Origin: Fibrobacteria bacterium
Lineage (GTDB): Bacteria > Fibrobacterota > Fibrobacteria > UBA11236
Reading direction: 5' to 3'
DNA: 64,000 bases
Assembly: GCA_041746255.1 (NCBI GenBank)
Contig: JBGTHM010000067.1
Coordinates: 11,254-75,253 of the forward strand
A model generated the notes under the pieces. The model did no database searches. It saw only the letters and a program-made list of their open reading frames with translations, and had not been told where the DNA came from. Positions within the stretch are counted from its first letter, which is position 1. Every line of letters starts with the position of its first letter. Positions 1-8,155 of this stretch are shown piece after piece. The position numbers and the translations under genes are program-made.

Positions 1-388
1 GAATGGATTGCATGGCGACATAGTCCTCCCCTCCCTGGGAATGAAAACCGAACCCGTGGGCCTCCCGTAAATCCGGAACATCTATCGCGTGAACGAGTTT
101 TATGGAGCGTGGGTTGGAGATGTCGTAGAAGGCTATTCCTCCTCCCGGCTTTCCGGAATCCTCCCCGTAAACGACGAATAGATACCCCTTGTGCATAGCC
201 GCGGAATTCAAGCCCTTCGCGGCGGAAGGGTTTTTTACCGAAAACTGCCTGATGGTGGACAGTGTCTTGAAGAGCTCGGATTGTTTATAGGTAAGATTGG
301 GAAGGCCCGGCCCTATCTGAGCGGAAACTAAAACCGGGAATAGGAGCAGGGCGAGAGCGGGGGCAAGGAAAAATTTCCCATATTTCAT
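1..388 (-). CDS. Secreted protein with LVIVD-like repeat (partial, runs off the left edge; absent from the ORF track)
   Basis: Manual translation from ATG at 388: MKYGKFFLAPALALLLFPVLVSAQ (signal peptide)...YLFVVYGEDSGKPGGGIAFYDISNPRSIKLV (LVIVD-like propeller repeat). Open to the window edge. Confidence 0.75.
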   Translation of the reverse strand, partial: MKYGKFFLAPALALLLFPVLVSAQIGPGLPNLTYKQSELFKTLSTIRQFSVKNPSAAKGLNSAAMHKGYLFVVYGEDSGKPGGGIAFYDISNPRSIKLVHAIDVPDLREAHGFGFHSQGGEDYVAMQSI

Positions 389-667
389 TATCTTCTCCAG
401 AATCCGTTGGGCGGCAGGCAAATACGATGATCAGAGGATTAATATAAGCTTTTTCCCCGGTAATCGCTTGTCAATAAAAAGCTGCGGCGCATCCCAACTT
501 TAGGACGCCTAAATATTAAAACAAGCCTATGTTACTATTAGAGATTCAAATTTACACTTCGATTTCCTAAAGCCAACGTTCGTGAGGTTGACCAAATGGA
601 CCTGCATAAACATTCGTTGCAATTTCGGGATTTACTATACGCTCCTCTAGAAAAAGAGACGGGAATT

Positions 668-1987
668 ATGCTGCTCCATCGATGCTTCCCGGTAATAGGC
701 CTTCCCGTCCTGATCACATCCTTTGTCTCCTTAGTATCTCTGCTCCTCCTTCCGGTTCGGATTCAAGCCCAACCCGGTCCCGACCTCCTTCCAATCGCAG
801 GAAAACCCCTCTTCGCAAACGGCATCAACGCCGCCTGGAATCATTTCGGCACCGATGTCGGGCGCCATGCTTCGTGGGGCGTACTTTACGACTCTGCGTT
901 TTTCGACGATATGTTCCGCGAAGTGGCGAAGGCCGGCGGCAACTCCGTGCGTTGGTGGCTGCATTGCGATGGACGCTCAACACCGGAATTCGACTCCCAT
1001 GGCATCGTTACCGGACTGGACGTCGAATTTTTCGATCATTTCGATGCGATTTTACGCGCGGCCGTCCGGCATACCGTCAAAGTCATGCCCGTGCTCTGGT
1101 CTTTCGACATGGCCAATGATGTAACGGCCAACGCCGGGCCCTATGGAGGCAAGCATATCAAACTCATTACCGATACGTCCGCCACCCAAGCGTATATCCA
1201 CCATGTATTGACTCCCCTGATTCGTCGCTATAAAGGGCATGCGGGAATTCTCGCTTGGGAAATCTGCAATGAACCGGAATGGATGTTGGAAGGCGACGGC
1301 AGCACCCTGCAACGTGCCAGCGCGCTGGAACTACAACGGTGGCACGGACTCTTGGCCGGCGCCATTCATCGCGAAGACCCTACGGCGCTGGTCACAACCG
1401 GATCAGCTTCCTTCAAATGGAATTGGGATAATCCCACAGGAAGCGAGCGGAATCTGTGGTCGGATTCGGCTTTGATCGCGGCCTCGGGCGATCCGAAAGG
1501 TTTTCTGGATTTTTACCAAGTGCATTATTACTCCTGGATGCGCGGTAACACTTGGACTTACAGTCCTTTCGACAAACCCGCCTCCTTTTGGAAGTTGGAC
1601 AAACCCGTAATGGTCGGAGAGTTTCCTGCGCTGGGAGAAACCGGATATAAAACCTCGGTGGAAATGCACCGGTGGTTGGCCGACCAGGGTTATACCGGTT
1701 CTTTTTCGTGGACCTATAAAGGCAATGACGAATACGGCAAATGGTCCGATGCCAAGCCAGGTGTGGAGTCGATAGCTATCGCCTATCCCCAAGCGGTGCG
1801 ACCGGAAGGGACTTCGCTGCGCTGGCCGATGCCCCTAGTCCGACAGACTCCCCATTGGCAAGCAATCTGGCTGCCGCAGCAAAACGGCATGCTGGTAATA
1901 AGGGAAGCGGGCGAGGGAAGGAGATTCATCCTCACCGGCAGAAAGGTGGATAAGGTTTTCCCCTCACGCTATAATCCGGGGGAATAA
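668..1987 (+). CDS. Secreted GH5 glycoside hydrolase, endo-beta-1,4-mannanase-like (GH5_10-like)
   Basis: GGNSVRWWLHCDGRSTPEFD, WEICNEPEW (acid/base), LDFYQVHYY, VMVGEFP (nucleophile), SFSWTY. Signal peptide ends IQA-Q. ORF is open from 596; ATG 668 preferred. Confidence 0.85.
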   Translation: MLLHRCFPVIGLPVLITSFVSLVSLLLLPVRIQAQPGPDLLPIAGKPLFANGINAAWNHFGTDVGRHASWGVLYDSAFFDDMFREVAKAGGNSVRWWLHCDGRSTPEFDSHGIVTGLDVEFFDHFDAILRAAVRHTVKVMPVLWSFDMANDVTANAGPYGGKHIKLITDTSATQAYIHHVLTPLIRRYKGHAGILAWEICNEPEWMLEGDGSTLQRASALELQRWHGLLAGAIHREDPTALVTTGSASFKWNWDNPTGSERNLWSDSALIAASGDPKGFLDFYQVHYYSWMRGNTWTYSPFDKPASFWKLDKPVMVGEFPALGETGYKTSVEMHRWLADQGYTGSFSWTYKGNDEYGKWSDAKPGVESIAIAYPQAVRPEGTSLRWPMPLVRQTPHWQAIWLPQQNGMLVIREAGEGRRFILTGRKVDKVFPSRYNPGE

Positions 1988-2016
1988 ACCCCCTGTAGCT
2001 TCGCATGAAACTCTTC
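1969..2016 (-). repeat. Displaced duplicate of the asnB 3' end (direct repeat copy 1)
   Basis: 1975-2013 matches 3366-3404 at 34/39 nt. Minus strand reads EEFHAKLQGVYSPGL* versus asnB QEFHAKPQGVYSPGP*, with TAG in the same position. Confidence 0.9.
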
Positions 2017-2036
2017 CTAGCCGCGATTCCCGTGGC

Positions 2037-3236
2037 TTAACGGATAATTTTCCCGGCCCACAGGCGGCCTAAAAATTCTTTCCAGGGCAACACATCCACT
2101 TCCCCCGATCTTCGCGGCTCCGGCTCATTACATACCATAATACTCATGCGGGGACTCGCATCCTGGCGAAAATCTTCCAGGCCTTTGAAATCACTTCGGT
2201 CCAGACGCGAACTTCCCTTTACTTCCACGGCGACTTCGCCTTCTCCTAAAATGAAATCGACTTCAAGGCCGGTTTTGGTGCGCCAATAGCGGATAGAAAA
2301 CTCTCCCTCGGTATAGGACCTATAGGCCAGCAGCTCCATGAATATCCAATGTTCAAAGGCGCGTCCGAACTCCGGCCCCTTGGCCTCCTCAATCCGGCGC
2401 TTGCAGAGCACTCCCGCAACTCCGACATCGAACAAATAAAATTTGGGCGCTTTAGACAAAACGTCACGGCGATGTGTATGCGTATACGGGCGGACGAAAT
2501 GTCCTAAAAGGGTATCTTCCAATATGTGAAAATATTCTTGGATGGTCTTCGACGACACGCCCGAGTCACGGGCAATATTGGAATAGTTCACCATTTCGCC
2601 ATGGCTGAAAGCTACCACGTCCAAAAACTTGGAAAAGGCAGGAACATTGCGTGCCAACCCTTCCGCCAGTATTTCTTCCTTCAAGTAATCATAGACATAA
2701 GCCTGTACTGATTTCCGGTACGCATCTTCCAGATAATGGGAGGGTACCAATCCATGATTTAACACCCGCAGTAGATCAATTTCATGGCCGGATGCTTGCA
2801 GCTCTTCGCTGGTAAGCGGGTGCAGATGATACTTCCATGCGCGGCCACCTAACAGGTTCGCTTGCCCTTTTTTCAGTTTGCGGGCACTCGACCCGCAGAG
2901 AATGAAACTGAGGCCATGGTTTTCGATTAGATAATGTACCTCGTCCAGCACCTGCGGAATTTTCTGCACTTCGTCCAAAATAATGGGGTGGCGCAACAAA
3001 TCCGTGTGTTGTGCCAAAAGGCGCTCGCGTAAAAGCGCGGGACGTTTGGAAATTTCGAAGAATAAATCGGTTTGCAAAAAATCGTAGCGAAGGCTTTGTG
3101 GAAAATGTTCCCGCAAATAAGTTGATTTACCGGATTTGCGGGGACCCCATAAAAAGGCGCTTTTCCCTGGGGGAAGGTGCATCTGGAGCTGCCGGGAAAT
3201 TCTAACTAATTTGGAGTACACTCCATAATAGTACAA
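2037..3236 (-). CDS. AAA+ ATPase (AAA_14) with C-terminal DUF4143 / PD-(D/E)XK-like nuclease domain
   Basis: Walker A GPRKSGKS, Walker B IILDEVQK, LCGSS, LLGGRA, KFYLFDVG, YWRTKTGLEVDFIL...AVEVK. True start uncertain (GTG at 3221 is plausible). Confidence 0.9.
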   Translation of the reverse strand: MYYYGVYSKLVRISRQLQMHLPPGKSAFLWGPRKSGKSTYLREHFPQSLRYDFLQTDLFFEISKRPALLRERLLAQHTDLLRHPIILDEVQKIPQVLDEVHYLIENHGLSFILCGSSARKLKKGQANLLGGRAWKYHLHPLTSEELQASGHEIDLLRVLNHGLVPSHYLEDAYRKSVQAYVYDYLKEEILAEGLARNVPAFSKFLDVVAFSHGEMVNYSNIARDSGVSSKTIQEYFHILEDTLLGHFVRPYTHTHRRDVLSKAPKFYLFDVGVAGVLCKRRIEEAKGPEFGRAFEHWIFMELLAYRSYTEGEFSIRYWRTKTGLEVDFILGEGEVAVEVKGSSRLDRSDFKGLEDFRQDASPRMSIMVCNEPEPRRSGEVDVLPWKEFLGRLWAGKIIR

Positions 3237-3269
3237 CTATTTTAACCTAAGGGTCAAAATAGTTGTACT
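3230..3269. promoter_or_regulatory. 18-bp inverted repeat, probable operator at the 5' end of the AAA+/DUF4143 gene
   Basis: AGTACAACTATTTTAACC-TAAG-GGTCAAAATAGTTGTACT, 17/18 complementary. AT-rich, no U-tract. Confidence 0.6.
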
Positions 3270-3359
3270 TACCCCCCTATTTCCGCTAAAATCGACCCAT
3301 TTTGCGATTTACCCCTAACCGACTTTTTTAACCCAAATAATAATCAGGCGGCAGGAACA

Positions 3360-3407
3360 CTAGGGTCCAGGGGAATAAACCCCCTGTGGTTTTGCATGAA
3401 ATTCCTG
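3360..3407 (-). repeat. asnB 3' end (direct repeat copy 2)
   Basis: Matches 1969-2016 at an offset of 1391 nt. Confidence 0.9.
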
Positions 3408-5318
3408 TATCCAGACGGAGAGCACATAGGCCGACCATAAGAAGGCGGCATGCTTCGTATCGCCCGCCAAAAACCCTCTCCAAATTTCGCGAAGCCTATC
3501 CATGTCGAGATAGGCTTCCAGCGGGGAAGATCGTGAGGATGTATTCGAGGAAGTGTTTGCGCCGAACAATTGCGCTGTGACCCGGGCGCGCCACTTATCA
3601 CGCATATAGGCATCCACGGGGATGGCGAAGCCGGTTTTGGGTTGGGTCAGCAGCGACGGCTCCACCTTTTTTTCCGCCAAGCGACGCAGCAGGTATTTGC
3701 ATTCGCCGCGGCTAATCTTGAGCGCCGCCGGCAAAGTGAAGGCATAGGAAACCAAATCCTGATCGAGCAAGGGGCTGCGCAATTCCAAGGAGTTGGCCAT
3801 GCTCATGCGATCGGCCTTGACCAACACGTTTTCGCACATGTAAAGCCGTGTATCCACGTATAGCGCGCGATTGAGTTCATCCCAGCCTTGGGTACGTTGG
3901 TAAAGAGCGCGCATGATATCCAGAGCCGGGTCCGCGCCCATGCGGAGGGCAGGGTTTAGCGCCGCTTCGCCGCAGCGCAGGGGCGACTGGTCTAGGTAGA
4001 AAGCCTTTATGGAGTCGGAGGCGAGATTACGCAGCACGGTTTTAAGCCGCAAGGGACGCGGCAGCGATTGCGAGTCGGGCCAGAGCGCATGCAATCCCGA
4101 GGCCATGGGGGAAAGGAGAGCTTCGGGAAGCAGTCGGCGCAGACGCTGCTCCATCAAATAGGGGAGGTAACGCGCAGAATACCCCCCGAAAGGCTCGTCA
4201 CCTCCGTCTCCGGTCAAGGCTACCGTGACCTCGCGGCGAGCCGCGCGGCAGATGAGATAGGTAGGCAGGATGGAGGAGTCGGCCAGAGGTTCTCCCAAGG
4301 GATGCATCAGTCTCGGCAGGAGATCGTCTTCGGCCTCGTCCAGGTCGAGCACTTGATGTTGCGCGCCATAATAGGCCGCCGCCTTAATCGCCGCCTGGCG
4401 CTCGTCGCCGATACCGGACATTCTCCCCTGCGATTTGAAGCCCACGGTAAAGGCGCGCACCGGGTCTTGCGAGACGCGCGCCATCGATGCCACCACCAGA
4501 TTGCTGTCTATGCCTCCGGATAGGAATGCCCCCAAGGGCACTTCGCTGATAAGCCGACGCGCCACTCCCTGATCGAGCAGGCCGGACAGCTTTTCCAGCG
4601 CCTCGTTTTCGCTCACCGCCACGCTTCCGGGCGCCGCCTCGGGTTGTATGTCCCAGAATTGCCAATGGCGTATTCCCTCTACCGAAATGCGCAGAGCATG
4701 GCCGGCTTCCAGTTTGCGCACGCCGGCATAAATGCAATGGGGCGCGGGAACGTAACCCAGGGAGAAGTACAGTCGCAAGGCTTCCGGCGAGAGCTTATCC
4801 GGCATAAGACCGCAAGCGCGCAAGGCGTTCACGTCGCTGGCGAAATGGAAGGTACCGGAATTTTCGAAATAGTAAAAGGGCTTTTTACCGATGGGATCGC
4901 GCGCGGCGAAAAGGGTGCGCTTATCGGCATCGTAAAGCGCGAAGGCGAACATGCCCCGCAGGCGCTCCAACAACCCTTCGCCCCAAGCGCGATAGCCATG
5001 CAATAAGACTTCGGTGTCGCTGCGGGTTTTAAAGCGATGGCCTAAGGCTTCCAGTTCTTTACGCAAGGGGCCGAAGTTGTAGATTTCCCCGTTGAACACC
5101 ACCGCGAGTCGGTTGTCGACGGTGCGCATGGGCTGGTCGCCTCCAGCCCGGTCGATAATGCTGAGGCGCCGGTGACCCAGTACCACCCCCTGGTTTTCAT
5201 ACACTCCGTCATCGTCCGGGCCGCGGTAGGCCATGGCCAGGTTCATGCTTTGCGCGCGCGCGCGGGCTTCCGAGGGGAGGTTCGAGTTGGGGGAGAAAAG
5301 GCCGCTGATACCGCACAT
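3360..5318 (-). CDS. asnB: Asparagine synthase (glutamine-hydrolysing) family amidotransferase, polysaccharide-locus type
   Basis: N-terminal MCGI, RGPD, LGHRRLSIID, FNGEIYN, LSGGIDS, LTGDGGDE, KADRMSMANSLELRSPLLD. Confidence 0.95.
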   Translation of the reverse strand: MCGISGLFSPNSNLPSEARARAQSMNLAMAYRGPDDDGVYENQGVVLGHRRLSIIDRAGGDQPMRTVDNRLAVVFNGEIYNFGPLRKELEALGHRFKTRSDTEVLLHGYRAWGEGLLERLRGMFAFALYDADKRTLFAARDPIGKKPFYYFENSGTFHFASDVNALRACGLMPDKLSPEALRLYFSLGYVPAPHCIYAGVRKLEAGHALRISVEGIRHWQFWDIQPEAAPGSVAVSENEALEKLSGLLDQGVARRLISEVPLGAFLSGGIDSNLVVASMARVSQDPVRAFTVGFKSQGRMSGIGDERQAAIKAAAYYGAQHQVLDLDEAEDDLLPRLMHPLGEPLADSSILPTYLICRAARREVTVALTGDGGDEPFGGYSARYLPYLMEQRLRRLLPEALLSPMASGLHALWPDSQSLPRPLRLKTVLRNLASDSIKAFYLDQSPLRCGEAALNPALRMGADPALDIMRALYQRTQGWDELNRALYVDTRLYMCENVLVKADRMSMANSLELRSPLLDQDLVSYAFTLPAALKISRGECKYLLRRLAEKKVEPSLLTQPKTGFAIPVDAYMRDKWRARVTAQLFGANTSSNTSSRSSPLEAYLDMDRLREIWRGFLAGDTKHAAFLWSAYVLSVWIQEFHAKPQGVYSPGP

Positions 5319-5398
5319 AATCCGGAAAAGGTAACCCCTTTTTCATAGGAAATAAGGGCGACGCCGCACGCATGGCTGCCGGACCTTTTCGCTATCCG

Positions 5399-8155
5399 TC
5401 AAAAATCGGTGGCGACCTGAATATCCCGGTTGACTTCGGTAAGAAAATTCTTCCAATGGAATTTGCCGATGCCGGGATGGATCAAGGGAAATTCCTGATA
5501 ATGATCCACCACGGGCAATAAATTTTCCCAATGGGTCTTGGCTTTTTTTATCGCTGTAATCGCACTGGTTTTGTCTCCGGCCGATTTTTTAACCCGATAG
5601 GTTTCCAGAAAAACCGCCGCCCTCAGTTTATCCGCGAAGTAGAGTGAGAGATGGCTCCAAGCCTTCACATCCATGACTTCGCATTCCAATTGCGGCGATC
5701 CGCCGGACACGGCTGATATCAGGCTAAGCGCATTTTCACCGGTGCGCTGCAATTCGTCCGCCAATCCAAGGGGAGTTATTTTTCCGGCCGGGAGAGTTCC
5801 GGCCTGAGCGCGGCTGACATATTCTTTCACCGATAAATATTTGGGGTCATAAACCGGGTGGTCCATCAATTCGCGCAAGGAAATGAAACGCGATTTTCCA
5901 TCATCGAATCCCGATTTGATGAGGGGAGCCAGAAAGCCCTCGGCATGCAGGGTATAGTCCGACCCATACAGGAAATACGAAGCCAACCTCAAGGGCATTT
6001 TGGAAGCGTCGGCATATGCCTTAACCAGGGATGCCCCGGCCTGCGTATTGAATTTTTCCTTAAAGGCATTTTCAAATACGGCATCCGGGGTGGCGGGATT
6101 ATATAACAATCGGCCCCATTGCATATAAAACAACCACTGCCGTTCGTACGAGTAGGTCCAGTTTTTATGGGTGTGGGGAGTCTTGTGAATGTAAGCTTTG
6201 GCCGGAATATAGGTTTCGGATCCGATGTTATATCCGGAAATATACTCCTGGGTGTTCTTACTGATATGCTCGCGAATCCAACCGGGTTCGCCCCAGCGCA
6301 AGGCGAAAAAATCTTCGTTGCGGATGGTCCACACCACGGAATAATTTTTGGGGGGAGGATTCCAATAGGTATCGGTAAGCTCGCCTCCGTGAACATAGAC
6401 AAGATCGGTGGCCGAATGTCCGTGGGACCAATTGTATTTGAAGGAAACCAGGACCGGGCCTTCAATATTGGATGCTTCCAGGTTGAGGCCTTCAAGATAG
6501 TTTCGGGTGAGGACCTCGGTTTCGACGCTGGTGGAGCCGTTAGGAAGCGTATCGCTGGACAAGGGAGCCCGATGCCAGAATTTGGCTTTGCGATTAGCCG
6601 CCTTCATGCCGTCGACAAAGGTCCGGGAAATCCAATCCTTGCGCTCGGCGGGCGTCATTCCCCCCATGCCTTCGCCCAAAGTGATTCCCAGACCGGTTAA
6701 ATCGGGGTATTCATTGATTACTTGGGTAATGGATTCCCGGTGGTAGGTTTCGATGACTTTGCTTTTGCCTCCGTCTCCATGCGAGGATGAAAAGTCGTCG
6801 AGCACATTTTTATCATAATTGTTTTTAAAACCTTGGGTAACGAAAATATTCCAGTTGATGAGATAGGTTTCAATCCCCCGGCTTTTGGCCAATGCGAAAA
6901 GCGATTTCCAGAAATCCTGTTTGGCTTTGAGTTCGGCATCGTTGAAAGGAGAAGCCTTCGGGAAATTTTTGGGCCGAATCAGGTAGGGAAAGGGATGCAG
7001 CGACCACAAGGAAAGGGTATTGAACCGGTTTTCGGCCATCATGTCGATAAAGCCTTTCCAATATTCGATATCCCAAAAAGTATCGGTGTGCAGTTGCAGG
7101 GATTCGTGACGACGGTAGGATGAAAACGGGGTATTGAATTTGATGCTGCGCACCGAGTATTGGGGATTCACCGTTTTCGCCTGAACATTGGCCAAGCCTT
7201 GCATGGAGAGCATTTCCGCCACTTCCAAACCGCCATACATCAATCCCGATTCATCCAATGCTTCCACCATGATTTGTGCGCCCGTTTTCCGGATGGCAAA
7301 ACCCTCTTTTTGCAGGGAGGGGTTGGCCTGGGCGGCGATCAGGCTGAAGGAAATACCCTCCGCCCCGGCTAGGGGTGTTGCGGTGAGCGCCGGTTTTCGG
7401 TTGAGGCGCCTTAACTTTTCCGAGATTTTTCCCGCTGCGAACAATTGGTGCGAGGATTGCAAATTAAGGCTGATTGGGAAGGGCGCACCCACCACCTCGG
7501 GCATTAGGACGACGTCCCCCAAGTCGACCGTTCCCAAAGTAACGGTTACGATCCGGGGCTGATAGGAAGCATGACTGAAATGAATGGAATCCAAAACCCC
7601 GGCATTTAGGTTGGTTTTAGCCAGGCTCATCGGCGGAGCCTGCTTAATCGAAAGGGATGCATCATGGGGTGATGCCCGGCCCATCATCGGAGTAAAGCGG
7701 AAGGTGCGGGCAAAATCAGGTGACTTTACCTGCACAAAAAAAATGCCGGTCTGGGCCGGAGCGATAAGGCGATCCAGATTCCAATGATATTGGCCGGGTT
7801 CGAGGGTTTCGGTGAACTTGTGGATACGTTGCCCTCCCAAGGATGACACCGTTACTTCAATAGGGTTACTGGCGGCGAGAGTGAATTGCAACCGGTTGGC
7901 ATTCACTTGCAAGGTGTTGCGGAAAAGGACGTCGCCGGAAAGGCCGATTCCCACCGCATTGCCCGAAAAGGAAAACTTCCCCAGGGCATCGGTCGTTTGT
8001 TTCTGCCCGTATTTCGGAAACGCTACCGTTACTCCGGGTAGAACTTGTTTTTTATCATCGATGGCTCTTCCGGTTATGTTCAGAGAAACGGTTTGCGATT
8101 GGGTGACTGAAAGCGTCCCGCATAAAACCAGAAGAATCGTTCCTATCATTTTCAT
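5399..8155 (-). CDS. Secreted GH-like protein: carboxypeptidase-regulatory-like N-domain, GH20/67/115-type alpha/beta domain, TIM barrel, helical tail (paralogue A)
   Basis: Signal peptide MKMIGTILLVLCG; EGFAI...DESGLMYGGLEVAE; IKFNTP, MAENRFNTLSLWSLHPFP, GLGITLGEGMG, WTIRNEDFF..RWG, WGRLLYNP. Confidence 0.75.
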   Translation of the reverse strand: MKMIGTILLVLCGTLSVTQSQTVSLNITGRAIDDKKQVLPGVTVAFPKYGQKQTTDALGKFSFSGNAVGIGLSGDVLFRNTLQVNANRLQFTLAASNPIEVTVSSLGGQRIHKFTETLEPGQYHWNLDRLIAPAQTGIFFVQVKSPDFARTFRFTPMMGRASPHDASLSIKQAPPMSLAKTNLNAGVLDSIHFSHASYQPRIVTVTLGTVDLGDVVLMPEVVGAPFPISLNLQSSHQLFAAGKISEKLRRLNRKPALTATPLAGAEGISFSLIAAQANPSLQKEGFAIRKTGAQIMVEALDESGLMYGGLEVAEMLSMQGLANVQAKTVNPQYSVRSIKFNTPFSSYRRHESLQLHTDTFWDIEYWKGFIDMMAENRFNTLSLWSLHPFPYLIRPKNFPKASPFNDAELKAKQDFWKSLFALAKSRGIETYLINWNIFVTQGFKNNYDKNVLDDFSSSHGDGGKSKVIETYHRESITQVINEYPDLTGLGITLGEGMGGMTPAERKDWISRTFVDGMKAANRKAKFWHRAPLSSDTLPNGSTSVETEVLTRNYLEGLNLEASNIEGPVLVSFKYNWSHGHSATDLVYVHGGELTDTYWNPPPKNYSVVWTIRNEDFFALRWGEPGWIREHISKNTQEYISGYNIGSETYIPAKAYIHKTPHTHKNWTYSYERQWLFYMQWGRLLYNPATPDAVFENAFKEKFNTQAGASLVKAYADASKMPLRLASYFLYGSDYTLHAEGFLAPLIKSGFDDGKSRFISLRELMDHPVYDPKYLSVKEYVSRAQAGTLPAGKITPLGLADELQRTGENALSLISAVSGGSPQLECEVMDVKAWSHLSLYFADKLRAAVFLETYRVKKSAGDKTSAITAIKKAKTHWENLLPVVDHYQEFPLIHPGIGKFHWKNFLTEVNRDIQVATDF

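Follow-up and report, generated by a model that had tools for sequence, protein, structure and literature searches.

How can a single gene come to stand between two copies of the 3' end of its neighbour when no recombinase is encoded beside it and both adjoining genes are intact? The question is raised by a 64,000-nt stretch of a Fibrobacteria bacterium (GenBank assembly GCA_041746255.1, contig JBGTHM010000067.1, positions 11,254 to 75,253 of the forward strand), hereafter the window, in whose numbering coordinates are given. Near its left end a gene for an ATPase-nuclease of the AAA_14 plus DUF4143 type lies between two convergent genes, one encoding a glycoside hydrolase of family GH5 and the other an asparagine synthase of the AsnB type, and the last codons of asnB are present on both sides of it. 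A preliminary description of the window had proposed that a small cassette entered asnB and restored its end. We find that this holds in so far as the asnB end is duplicated, the intervening segment is self-contained with one gene, and both neighbours are intact; the unit is, however, no newcomer, as an orthologue occupies the corresponding polysaccharide locus of the sister species (genome G001). Our tentative explanation is that the repeat is the scar of a recombinase-free, host-mediated insertion-duplication anchored by homology.

Structure of the duplicated gene end

The two copies form an imperfect direct repeat of 48 nt (81% identity, spacing 1391), the outstanding one in a repeat search of positions 1500-4000 (Table 1). 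It corresponds to the last 15 codons and the stop codon of asnB. Read in the sense of that gene, the right copy, EFHAKPQGVYSPGP followed by a stop, is the working end, and the left copy, EFHAKLQGVYSPGL followed by a stop, is an orphan, with TAG at the same offset in each. In the narrower span first described (1975-2013 and 3366-3404) 34 of 39 positions are identical and four of the five differences are synonymous third-position transitions; the repeat search and the translations confirm both statements. Over all 45 coding nucleotides there are eight differences, distributed as one, two and five over the first, second and third codon positions, such that four codons differ synonymously and two non-synonymously, and three neighbouring differences fall in the last asnB codon. 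The outer edge of the repeat is no more than 3 nt from the asnB stop codon. To judge from the letters themselves the repeat may continue to about 2018 and 3406 if a 3-nt in-frame indel is allowed, and at the junction of the orphan with the unit the two sequences have TTCCT in common. The longest identical core measures 18 nt (1978-1995 and 3369-3386). Both copies share a GC hairpin, but the run of T residues that follows it is kept in the right copy only (3368-3396 compared with 1977-2005) and is missing from the copy on the GH5 side. Hairpin and T-run of the right copy together resemble a terminator on the plus strand, and no gene on that strand reads into them.

Throughout the 4.59-Mb genome each copy matches only its partner (32 nt, 90.6%, E 1.3e-4), the next-best matches being at most 17 nt long with E values of at least 0.49. 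Comparison of the two flanks of the ATPase gene gives a score of 46.8 bits; among 300 random spans of 1,200 bp from the same genome the 99th percentile of this score is 25.8 bits. The repeat is real, unique within this genome and no dispersed element, and the concern raised at the outset, that it might be an unrelated sequence scattered over the genome, is removed by the count of two copies. As previously noted, the left copy overlaps the end of the convergent GH5 gene: the last seven GH5 codons and the stop codon (TAA, 1985-1987) lie inside it, so the orphan supplies the stop of GH5. The orphan belongs to no gene in the asnB sense, because an in-frame TAG (2018-2020) stands directly upstream. 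The duplication leaves GH5 and asnB both intact, and the G+C content is 48.7% in the insert, 54.5% in GH5 and 59.7% in asnB.

The 1,343 bp between the copies (2014-3356) contain one gene and a palindrome, all other open reading frames being short and overlapping that gene; the earlier account of this segment is thereby upheld. The protein matches Pfam AAA_14 (1.2e-18) and DUF4143 (1.4e-31), both above cut-off, and belongs to PDC-S01, since all seven PADLOC models of that candidate system are matched (best PDLC04790, 2.2e-49, residues 11-347). Its GTG start at 3221 was chosen by homology with the gene of the sister species. Reading the translation by eye we find GPRKSGKST, which we take to be the Walker A motif, and D...EVK, presumably the PD-(D/E)XK-type motif. 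No PDB sequence matched the protein at E of 0.01 or below, so that no sequence-related structure has been solved. Neither an integrase nor a transposase is encoded between the repeats or beside them, as judged from open reading frames and Pfam, in agreement with what had been stated before. The ends of the unit carry no inverted repeat and there is no second copy of the unit in the genome. With no terminal inverted repeats, a 48-nt duplication and a single copy, it does not have the characters of an insertion sequence or DNA transposon; nor does it have those of an integrase-type element, as no tyrosine or serine recombinase is found here or in the unit of the sister species.

The unit is older than the repeat

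The closest homologue of the gene (L035; about 80% identical in amino acids and 73.7% in nucleotides) belongs to G001, which is the only other genome, and the only other species, of the genus. A 53-kb contig of G001 is collinear with contigs C116, C67 and C37 of the present genome, taken in that order, at 65-85% nucleotide identity. The gene order galE, GT2, ATPase and a 733/880-aa gene, together with the orientations, is equal in both species. Three blocks are present here and absent in G001, namely 28.7 kb between galE and GT2, 15.5 kb with asnB and other genes between GT2 and the ATPase gene, and 6.2 kb with GH5 and other genes between the ATPase gene and the 880-aa gene. The outgroup ATPase loci (at most 53% identical) show no synteny with this locus, and for that reason the polarity of the three differences cannot be set. 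Further multi-kb blocks along C37 are likewise missing from G001, and the two genomes measure 3.9 Mb (G001) and 4.59 Mb.

The G001 unit fits tightly between two stop codons, that of GT2 and that of the 733-aa gene, and lacks the repeat. Homology upstream of the gene ceases at AAAATGGG, directly after the GT2 stop and equivalent to about position 3303 of the window, and the only flanking repeat at that locus (22 nt, 86%, 25.7 bits) is not meaningful. At four-fold degenerate sites the ATPase gene has diverged from that of G001 by 0.59, compared with 0.61 in GT2 and 0.53 in the 880-aa gene; as these values match, the unit is taken to be as old in the locus as its neighbours. The two copies of the repeat differ at only 19% of positions, from which it follows that the repeat is younger than the split of the two species, or that one copy came from a donor closer than G001. 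By these comparisons the ATPase unit is old in the lineage, and the repeat records a later local recombination, not the first arrival of the unit.

Search for an empty site

A relative in which asnB abuts GH5 with one copy of the repeat, as the preliminary description had envisaged, was found neither among 40 relatives nor among 31 other genomes of the family, in which the best match to asnB has 57% identity, nor in metagenome contigs, in which the best has 47%. Orthologues of GH5 are at most 64% identical, can be aligned only over residues about 42-407, and are located on contigs other than that of asnB. In G009, G012 and G002 the gene convergent with the asnB orthologue is a different one, and the asnB tails are not conserved beyond a conserved W-x-x-x-H. 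When positions 1-7000 of the window were compared with the contigs of three sequencing runs from one study, no joint skipping 1966-3404 was seen and no circular joint, including that of the 1.39-kb circle predicted earlier; as rare variants are lost in contigs, this does not show that such forms are absent. The contigs of one run (X1, probably the source sample) hold the occupied form, and those of another (X2) contain short identical pieces, one of which spans the right repeat.

Flanking repeats around relatives of the gene

It had also been predicted that AAA_14/DUF4143 loci in general would be enriched for flanking duplications. Within the present genome this is not so: DUF4143 is matched 16 times, a flanking repeat is found only at the gene described here, and the other 15 score no higher than 19.9 bits. 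Among relatives elsewhere such an enrichment is seen. We applied the threshold of 25.8 bits to two sets of loci. The first comprised 80 loci of relatives that are 45-80% identical, 68 of which were tested and 12 dropped for having less than 200 nt of flank; direct repeats above the threshold were present in the flanks of 13/68, compared with 0/68 when flanks were paired at random. Shifted windows gave 13 of 206 rows, equal to seven distinct places, in a control that used two nearly identical shifts per side. The second set consisted of DUF4143 genes from five other genomes (38 tested of 40, two having too short a flank) and yielded 11/38 against 3/44 shifted controls. When the sets are pooled and each locus is counted once (L259 being merged with L070, and L267 with L112), flanking repeats occur at 22 of 104 loci and at 10 of 147 shifted controls (p = 0.001, Fisher). 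The enrichment is real, although by our reading it brings together repeats of several different kinds.

Gene ends that are duplicated or orphaned are found at L266, where a 104-nt 3' end of a sorting-domain gene is repeated at 79% identity, at L265 (a 3' end of about 100 nt) and at L250 (a 56-nt 5' end). The orphan at L266 retains an open frame and an aligned stop, and 12 of its 22 differences are at third positions. Other repeats lie between tandem family genes or neighbouring cassettes (L039, L063, L106 and L256), are multi-copy hairpin sequences of the REP-like type (L078, with seven copies in the locus, and L077), or consist of tRNA 3' ends (L102, four copies). The ends of pre-existing paralogues account for L107 and L038, and several loci have only short or low-complexity matches. 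Members of the family are widespread: homologues with 60-71% identity occur in many phyla, 421 plasmid records hold members, and a genome has 3-25 DUF4143 matches, a figure that counts matches and not gene copies.

Several of these loci have features of their own. At L266 (4307-4515) a truncated AAA_14 N-terminus (Walker A, VRQAGKTT) precedes the orphan sorting-domain tail beside the DUF4143 gene and is fused to it, which suggests an earlier cassette cut by recombination. The tRNA 3' ends of L102 (2599-2781 and 4297-4348), each reaching from the T-arm to the end, are arranged as three in tandem before the family gene and one after it, a pattern that looks like serial integration at one tRNA gene. 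Beside the family member of L063 a 417-aa gene (4348-5601) has a direct repeat of its own (111 nt, 85%; 4154-4264 and 5659-5769), the start of which recurs before the ATPase gene, giving an array of two cassettes separated by repeats. Two candidates for target duplication, L107 and L038, were rejected. The repeat around the ATPase gene of L107 is the conserved leader of two paralogous peptide-precursor genes, and its left copy matches the relative G080 on both sides; that of L038 belongs to a multi-copy gene family, of which it is the 5' end and which has more copies in the same genome. Two Acinetobacter plasmids (L270, 3531-5574, and L271, 1501-2958) carry, at one site with conserved flanks next to a WYL/BREX system, either a distant family member (25% identical) or a pair formed by a small open reading frame and a Fic gene. 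The sole flanking repeat at this site is a 22-nt piece of a terminator, and the case is a substitution of one allelic cassette by another within a defence hot spot, not a target duplication.

A clean case is provided by a different cassette in L107. There a pair of genes resembling mazE and mazF (open reading frames 1897-2136 and 2136-2471) stands between perfect direct repeats of 35 nt (1710-1744 and 2506-2540), which are the 3' end of the preceding radical-SAM-like gene. In the relative G080 (L215, 2330-2500) there is one copy of the repeat and no such cassette, i.e. an empty site. Here, then, a toxin-antitoxin module is enclosed by a clean long target duplication. Since a cassette without an ATPase-nuclease bears the same scar, it argues against catalysis by that enzyme.

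Origin of the repeat

We tentatively explain the repeat as the scar of a recombinase-free, host-mediated and homology-anchored insertion-duplication, an explanation that we favour while placing it somewhat short of probable. The incoming DNA would have comprised the self-contained ATPase-nuclease unit and, joined to it, a short asnB 3' end derived from a close relative; it may have been just that fragment, circularised, or a longer stretch of the polysaccharide locus. Its asnB end would have recombined with the resident tail, either by a single crossover of the Campbell type or by homology-facilitated illegitimate recombination. One tail would thus be joined to the working asnB and the other orphaned beyond the unit, where it gives GH5 its stop, as in the structure found in the window. 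Such an event would have re-positioned or replaced the unit after the two species had split, with the encoded ATPase-nuclease as a passenger. By our reasoning the succession of GH5, orphan tail, unit, spacer, working tail and asnB requires that the unit was placed within an overlap of GH5 and asnB that had formerly been unbroken, and we could devise no simpler route to it from an arrangement like that of G001.

Several features of the repeat are as this explanation would have them. If the homology between the partners was confined to coding sequence, the repeat should end at the asnB stop, as it does, whereas a staggered cut would leave an arbitrary edge. Differences occur on both sides of the 18-nt core, the distribution to be expected after a crossover of diverged copies; this is a weak indication, the chance of such a run being 0.086. 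The hairpin with T-run on which GH5 would terminate is now at the asnB-side copy, and the absence of the T-run behind GH5 is the pattern that chimeric crossover copies would give. Frame and stop are kept in both copies and third-position differences are in excess, here as at L266, and the locus is plastic, as seen in the three blocks absent from G001; we count both for a homology-anchored insertion, together with the TTCCT shared by orphan and unit at their junction and with the mazEF-like cassette, which bears the same scar without an ATPase-nuclease. Host recombination acting through short gene-end homology is pointed to by the greater age of the unit, by the repeat ending at the stop and by copies that differ as alleles do, and it is a likelier agent than the encoded enzyme.

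Other observations weigh against this explanation. Neither an empty site nor a donor allele was found in the genomes, contigs and runs searched, and the direction and nature of the event are deduced from one genome and one diverged sister. Third positions account for 17 of the 30 differences at our locus and L266 combined, which departs from one third (p = 0.007) but not from about 0.46 (p = 0.16), the expectation when one copy is under selection, so that the codon-position bias is compatible with duplication followed by drift. Selection on the asnB tail may in turn be weak, since the tail is not conserved among orthologues. The identical core of 18 nt is short for recombination of the RecA type, and in L107 and L038, the two loci followed with comparison genomes, the repeats at the ATPase gene proved to be pre-existing paralogue ends.

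The closest competitor is a true insertion with long target duplication, in which breaks staggered by about 48 nt within the GH5/asnB overlap were filled in and the two copies then drifted. Its sizes and gene content agree with the published definition of such insertions (PMC2853133); the copy spans exactly what two overlapping convergent genes need in order to stay intact; and the enrichment of repeats around relatives, the mazEF-like cassette with its empty site and a codon-position pattern compatible with drift can all be cited for it. We nevertheless regard it as rather unlikely. The repeat is only 81% identical although the gene of the unit is intact, on its outer side it ends at the asnB stop, the last codon has three differences side by side, and no empty site was met with in the genomes, metagenome contigs and runs searched. 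Moreover, the unit was in the locus before the species split, so that an extra local move would be needed.

Much less likely is self-mobilisation, in which the gene, moved by the ATPase-nuclease that it encodes, would be a minimal transposon-like unit making long target duplications of variable length. The domain composition (an ATPase joined to a PD-(D/E)XK-type nuclease), the abundance and wide transfer of the family, the enrichment of flanking repeats around its members and a conserved palindrome at one end of the unit might all suggest it. The palindrome, however, is present at one end only and on the -10 element of a promoter, which fits an operator, and the ends carry no inverted repeat. 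There is also no second copy of the unit in the genome, no flanking repeat at the other 15 DUF4143 genes, and a mixture of repeat types around relatives; the mazEF-like cassette shows the same scar without any such enzyme, and the orthologue has not left its locus since the two species separated. The suggestion of self-mobilisation made in the preliminary description is accordingly not sustained. Its other suggestion, a remnant of a larger island, fares slightly worse still, and we consider it highly improbable. The copies would then be attL and attR of an element bearing a recombinase and a replacement asnB end, later deleted down to the ATPase gene. In its favour, the layout resembles that left by elements which enter the 3' end of a gene and bring a replacement end, with an 18-nt identical core and homology ending at the stop. 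Against it, the repeats neither enclose nor adjoin an integrase gene or part of one, and the gene, its promoter region and the 53-nt spacer leave none of the 1,343 bp unexplained. In the sister species, too, the unit stands alone with no integrase, and the repeat occurs nowhere else in the present genome.

Features of the unit and its neighbours

The features of the locus are listed in Table 1. The promoter-like sequence of the ATPase gene has its -10 element at the centre of the palindrome (window 3222-3269), and the transcript may be nearly leaderless. In its right half this palindrome represents, for this locus, an operator-like palindrome that is conserved in the family. With at least 11 matched arm bases required in the 200 nt before the gene, such palindromes precede 25 of 76 relatives but only 4 of 115 control segments, 76 of the 80 loci having had enough upstream sequence. 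Most are situated between -66 and -38, with ACTCC-AAATTAGTT / AACTAATTT-GGAGT as their common sequence, which is kept in sequence and position across phyla (for example in L038, L039, L054, L058, L069, L072 and L086, among others). Because the palindrome sits on the -10 element, we read it as a putative autoregulatory operator.

Table 1. Features around the ATPase-nuclease unit, in window coordinates
Feature	Position	Strand	Basis or remark
GH5 glycoside hydrolase gene, 463 aa	596..1987	+	Open reading frame; Pfam Cellulase 1.7e-08
Left repeat copy, orphan asnB 3' end, EFHAKLQGVYSPGL and stop	1966..2013		Stop in asnB sense 1969-1971; perhaps to about 2018
GC hairpin GGGGG-AATAAA-CCCCC in identical repeat core	1977..1992		GH5 stop in loop; read from sequence
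17-nt motif directly after ATPase stop	2017..2033	-	One occurrence near the gene in each genome
AAA_14 + DUF4143 ATPase-nuclease gene, 394 aa, GTG start 3221	2037..3221	-	Pfam, PADLOC, homology
Upstream part of unit still alignable with sister species	3222..3303	-	Homology there stops at AAAATGGG, abutting GT2 stop
Promoter-like TTGACC-18-TACTAT	3228..3257	-	Ends 7 nt before GTG; consensus match only
Palindrome over promoter, 18-nt arms (94%), 4-nt spacer	3230..3269		Arms 3230-3247 and 3252-3269; repeat search
AT-rich 53-nt spacer between unit shared with G001 and right repeat copy	3304..3356		No alignment with G001
Right repeat copy, working asnB 3' end	3357..3404		Stop 3360-3362; hairpin and T-run on + strand
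asnB-type asparagine synthase gene, 652 aa, in polysaccharide gene cluster	3360..5318	-	Pfam Asn_synthase 1.4e-80, GATase_7 1.1e-45

The 17-nt motif behind the ATPase gene recurs in G001 (16 nt, with one indel) in the equivalent intergenic place but on the opposite strand (about C3 22432). The two occurrences could represent the halves of a terminator palindrome since lost, or may result from a small inversion. At the left end of the window (2-421), two genes from the ATPase unit, lies the 5' end of a gene for a 601-aa lipoprotein, and in L222 (G002, contig C240) a DUF4143 paralogue with 39% identity adjoins a 42% identical homologue of this lipoprotein gene.

As to the role of the protein, a nucleic-acid-directed function in defence or conflict is likely, with putative repression of its own gene through the operator palindrome, and the gene may be classed as a candidate phage-defence gene. 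DUF4143 is described as a PD-(D/E)XK family of unknown function (PMC3424549). PDC-S01 is reported to rank as the fourth most common defence candidate in prokaryotes, with validation pending (PMC12988326). The one PDC-S01 representative tested in Escherichia coli is not among the four systems that protected against T4, T5 or T7 (bioRxiv 10.1101/2024.09.26.614923).

Relation to known systems and implications

Duplication of a short anchor around incoming DNA is familiar from homology-facilitated illegitimate recombination and from insertion-duplication of the Campbell type, neither of which needs a dedicated recombinase and in both of which the anchor sets the length of the repeat. Such events are known from laboratory constructs and transformation, whereas here the event is deduced from a scar with an identical core of 18 nt. 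Displacement of C-termini at rhs and contact-dependent inhibition (CDI) loci yields a set order of functional gene end, accessory gene and, last, the older gene end, now an orphan; the ends differ as alleles do. The present locus has the same succession of working end, accessory gene and orphan end; it differs in that asnB is a housekeeping-type enzyme gene and not a polymorphic toxin, and in having a single orphan and no array. With integrase-mediated 3'-end integration and its attL and attR sites it shares a duplicated gene 3' end, an identical core and a restored target, but there is no integrase or larger element here, nor any sign of one in the sister species.

Insertion with long target duplication was defined for restriction-modification genes, its mechanism being left open (Furuta, Abe & Kobayashi 2010, PMC2853133). 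As defined there, the repeat exceeds 30 bp, the insert is smaller than 20 kb and free of mobile-element genes, and an empty site is available for comparison. Our locus has a 48-nt repeat and a 1,343-bp insert without a mobility gene, and it lacks the restriction and modification genes. The resemblance to those insertions lies in the mode of insertion, as a small accessory unit without a mobility gene is enclosed by site-unique direct repeats of more than 30 bp that overlap gene ends; the cargo differs, being a single ATPase-nuclease gene and not a restriction-modification pair. Furuta and co-workers cite Nobusato et al. (2000). A further difference is that most repeats in the rows consulted in Tables 2 and 3 of Furuta et al. 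are 92-100% identical (PMC2853133), compared with 81% here. Our case also has no empty-site genome among those searched, and the unit pre-dates the repeat in its lineage. In the titles, abstracts and passages surveyed, we found no publication that ties the DUF4143/COG1373/PDC-S01 family to insertions of this kind or to mobility. The kind of scar is a recurrent one around this gene family, for which no published case was found.

What is new here is the evidence for a cassette older than the repeat, and for host recombination as a likelier agent than the encoded enzyme. The locus offers a dated example, in which the unit is older than the repeat that encloses it. If the process is general, it would explain the frequent position of small selfish or defence cassettes exactly at gene ends, where they do no harm to their neighbours. 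An extension to the whole family, whereby AAA_14-DUF4143 (PDC-S01) genes spread as recombinase-free one-gene cassettes that carry a neighbour's gene end, re-enter by homology and leave orphan gene ends behind, or whereby their own ATPase-nuclease makes the long staggered breaks, appears unlikely to us at present. Were either version true, it would constitute an undescribed general route of gene mobility, which toxin-antitoxin and restriction-modification cassettes would share.

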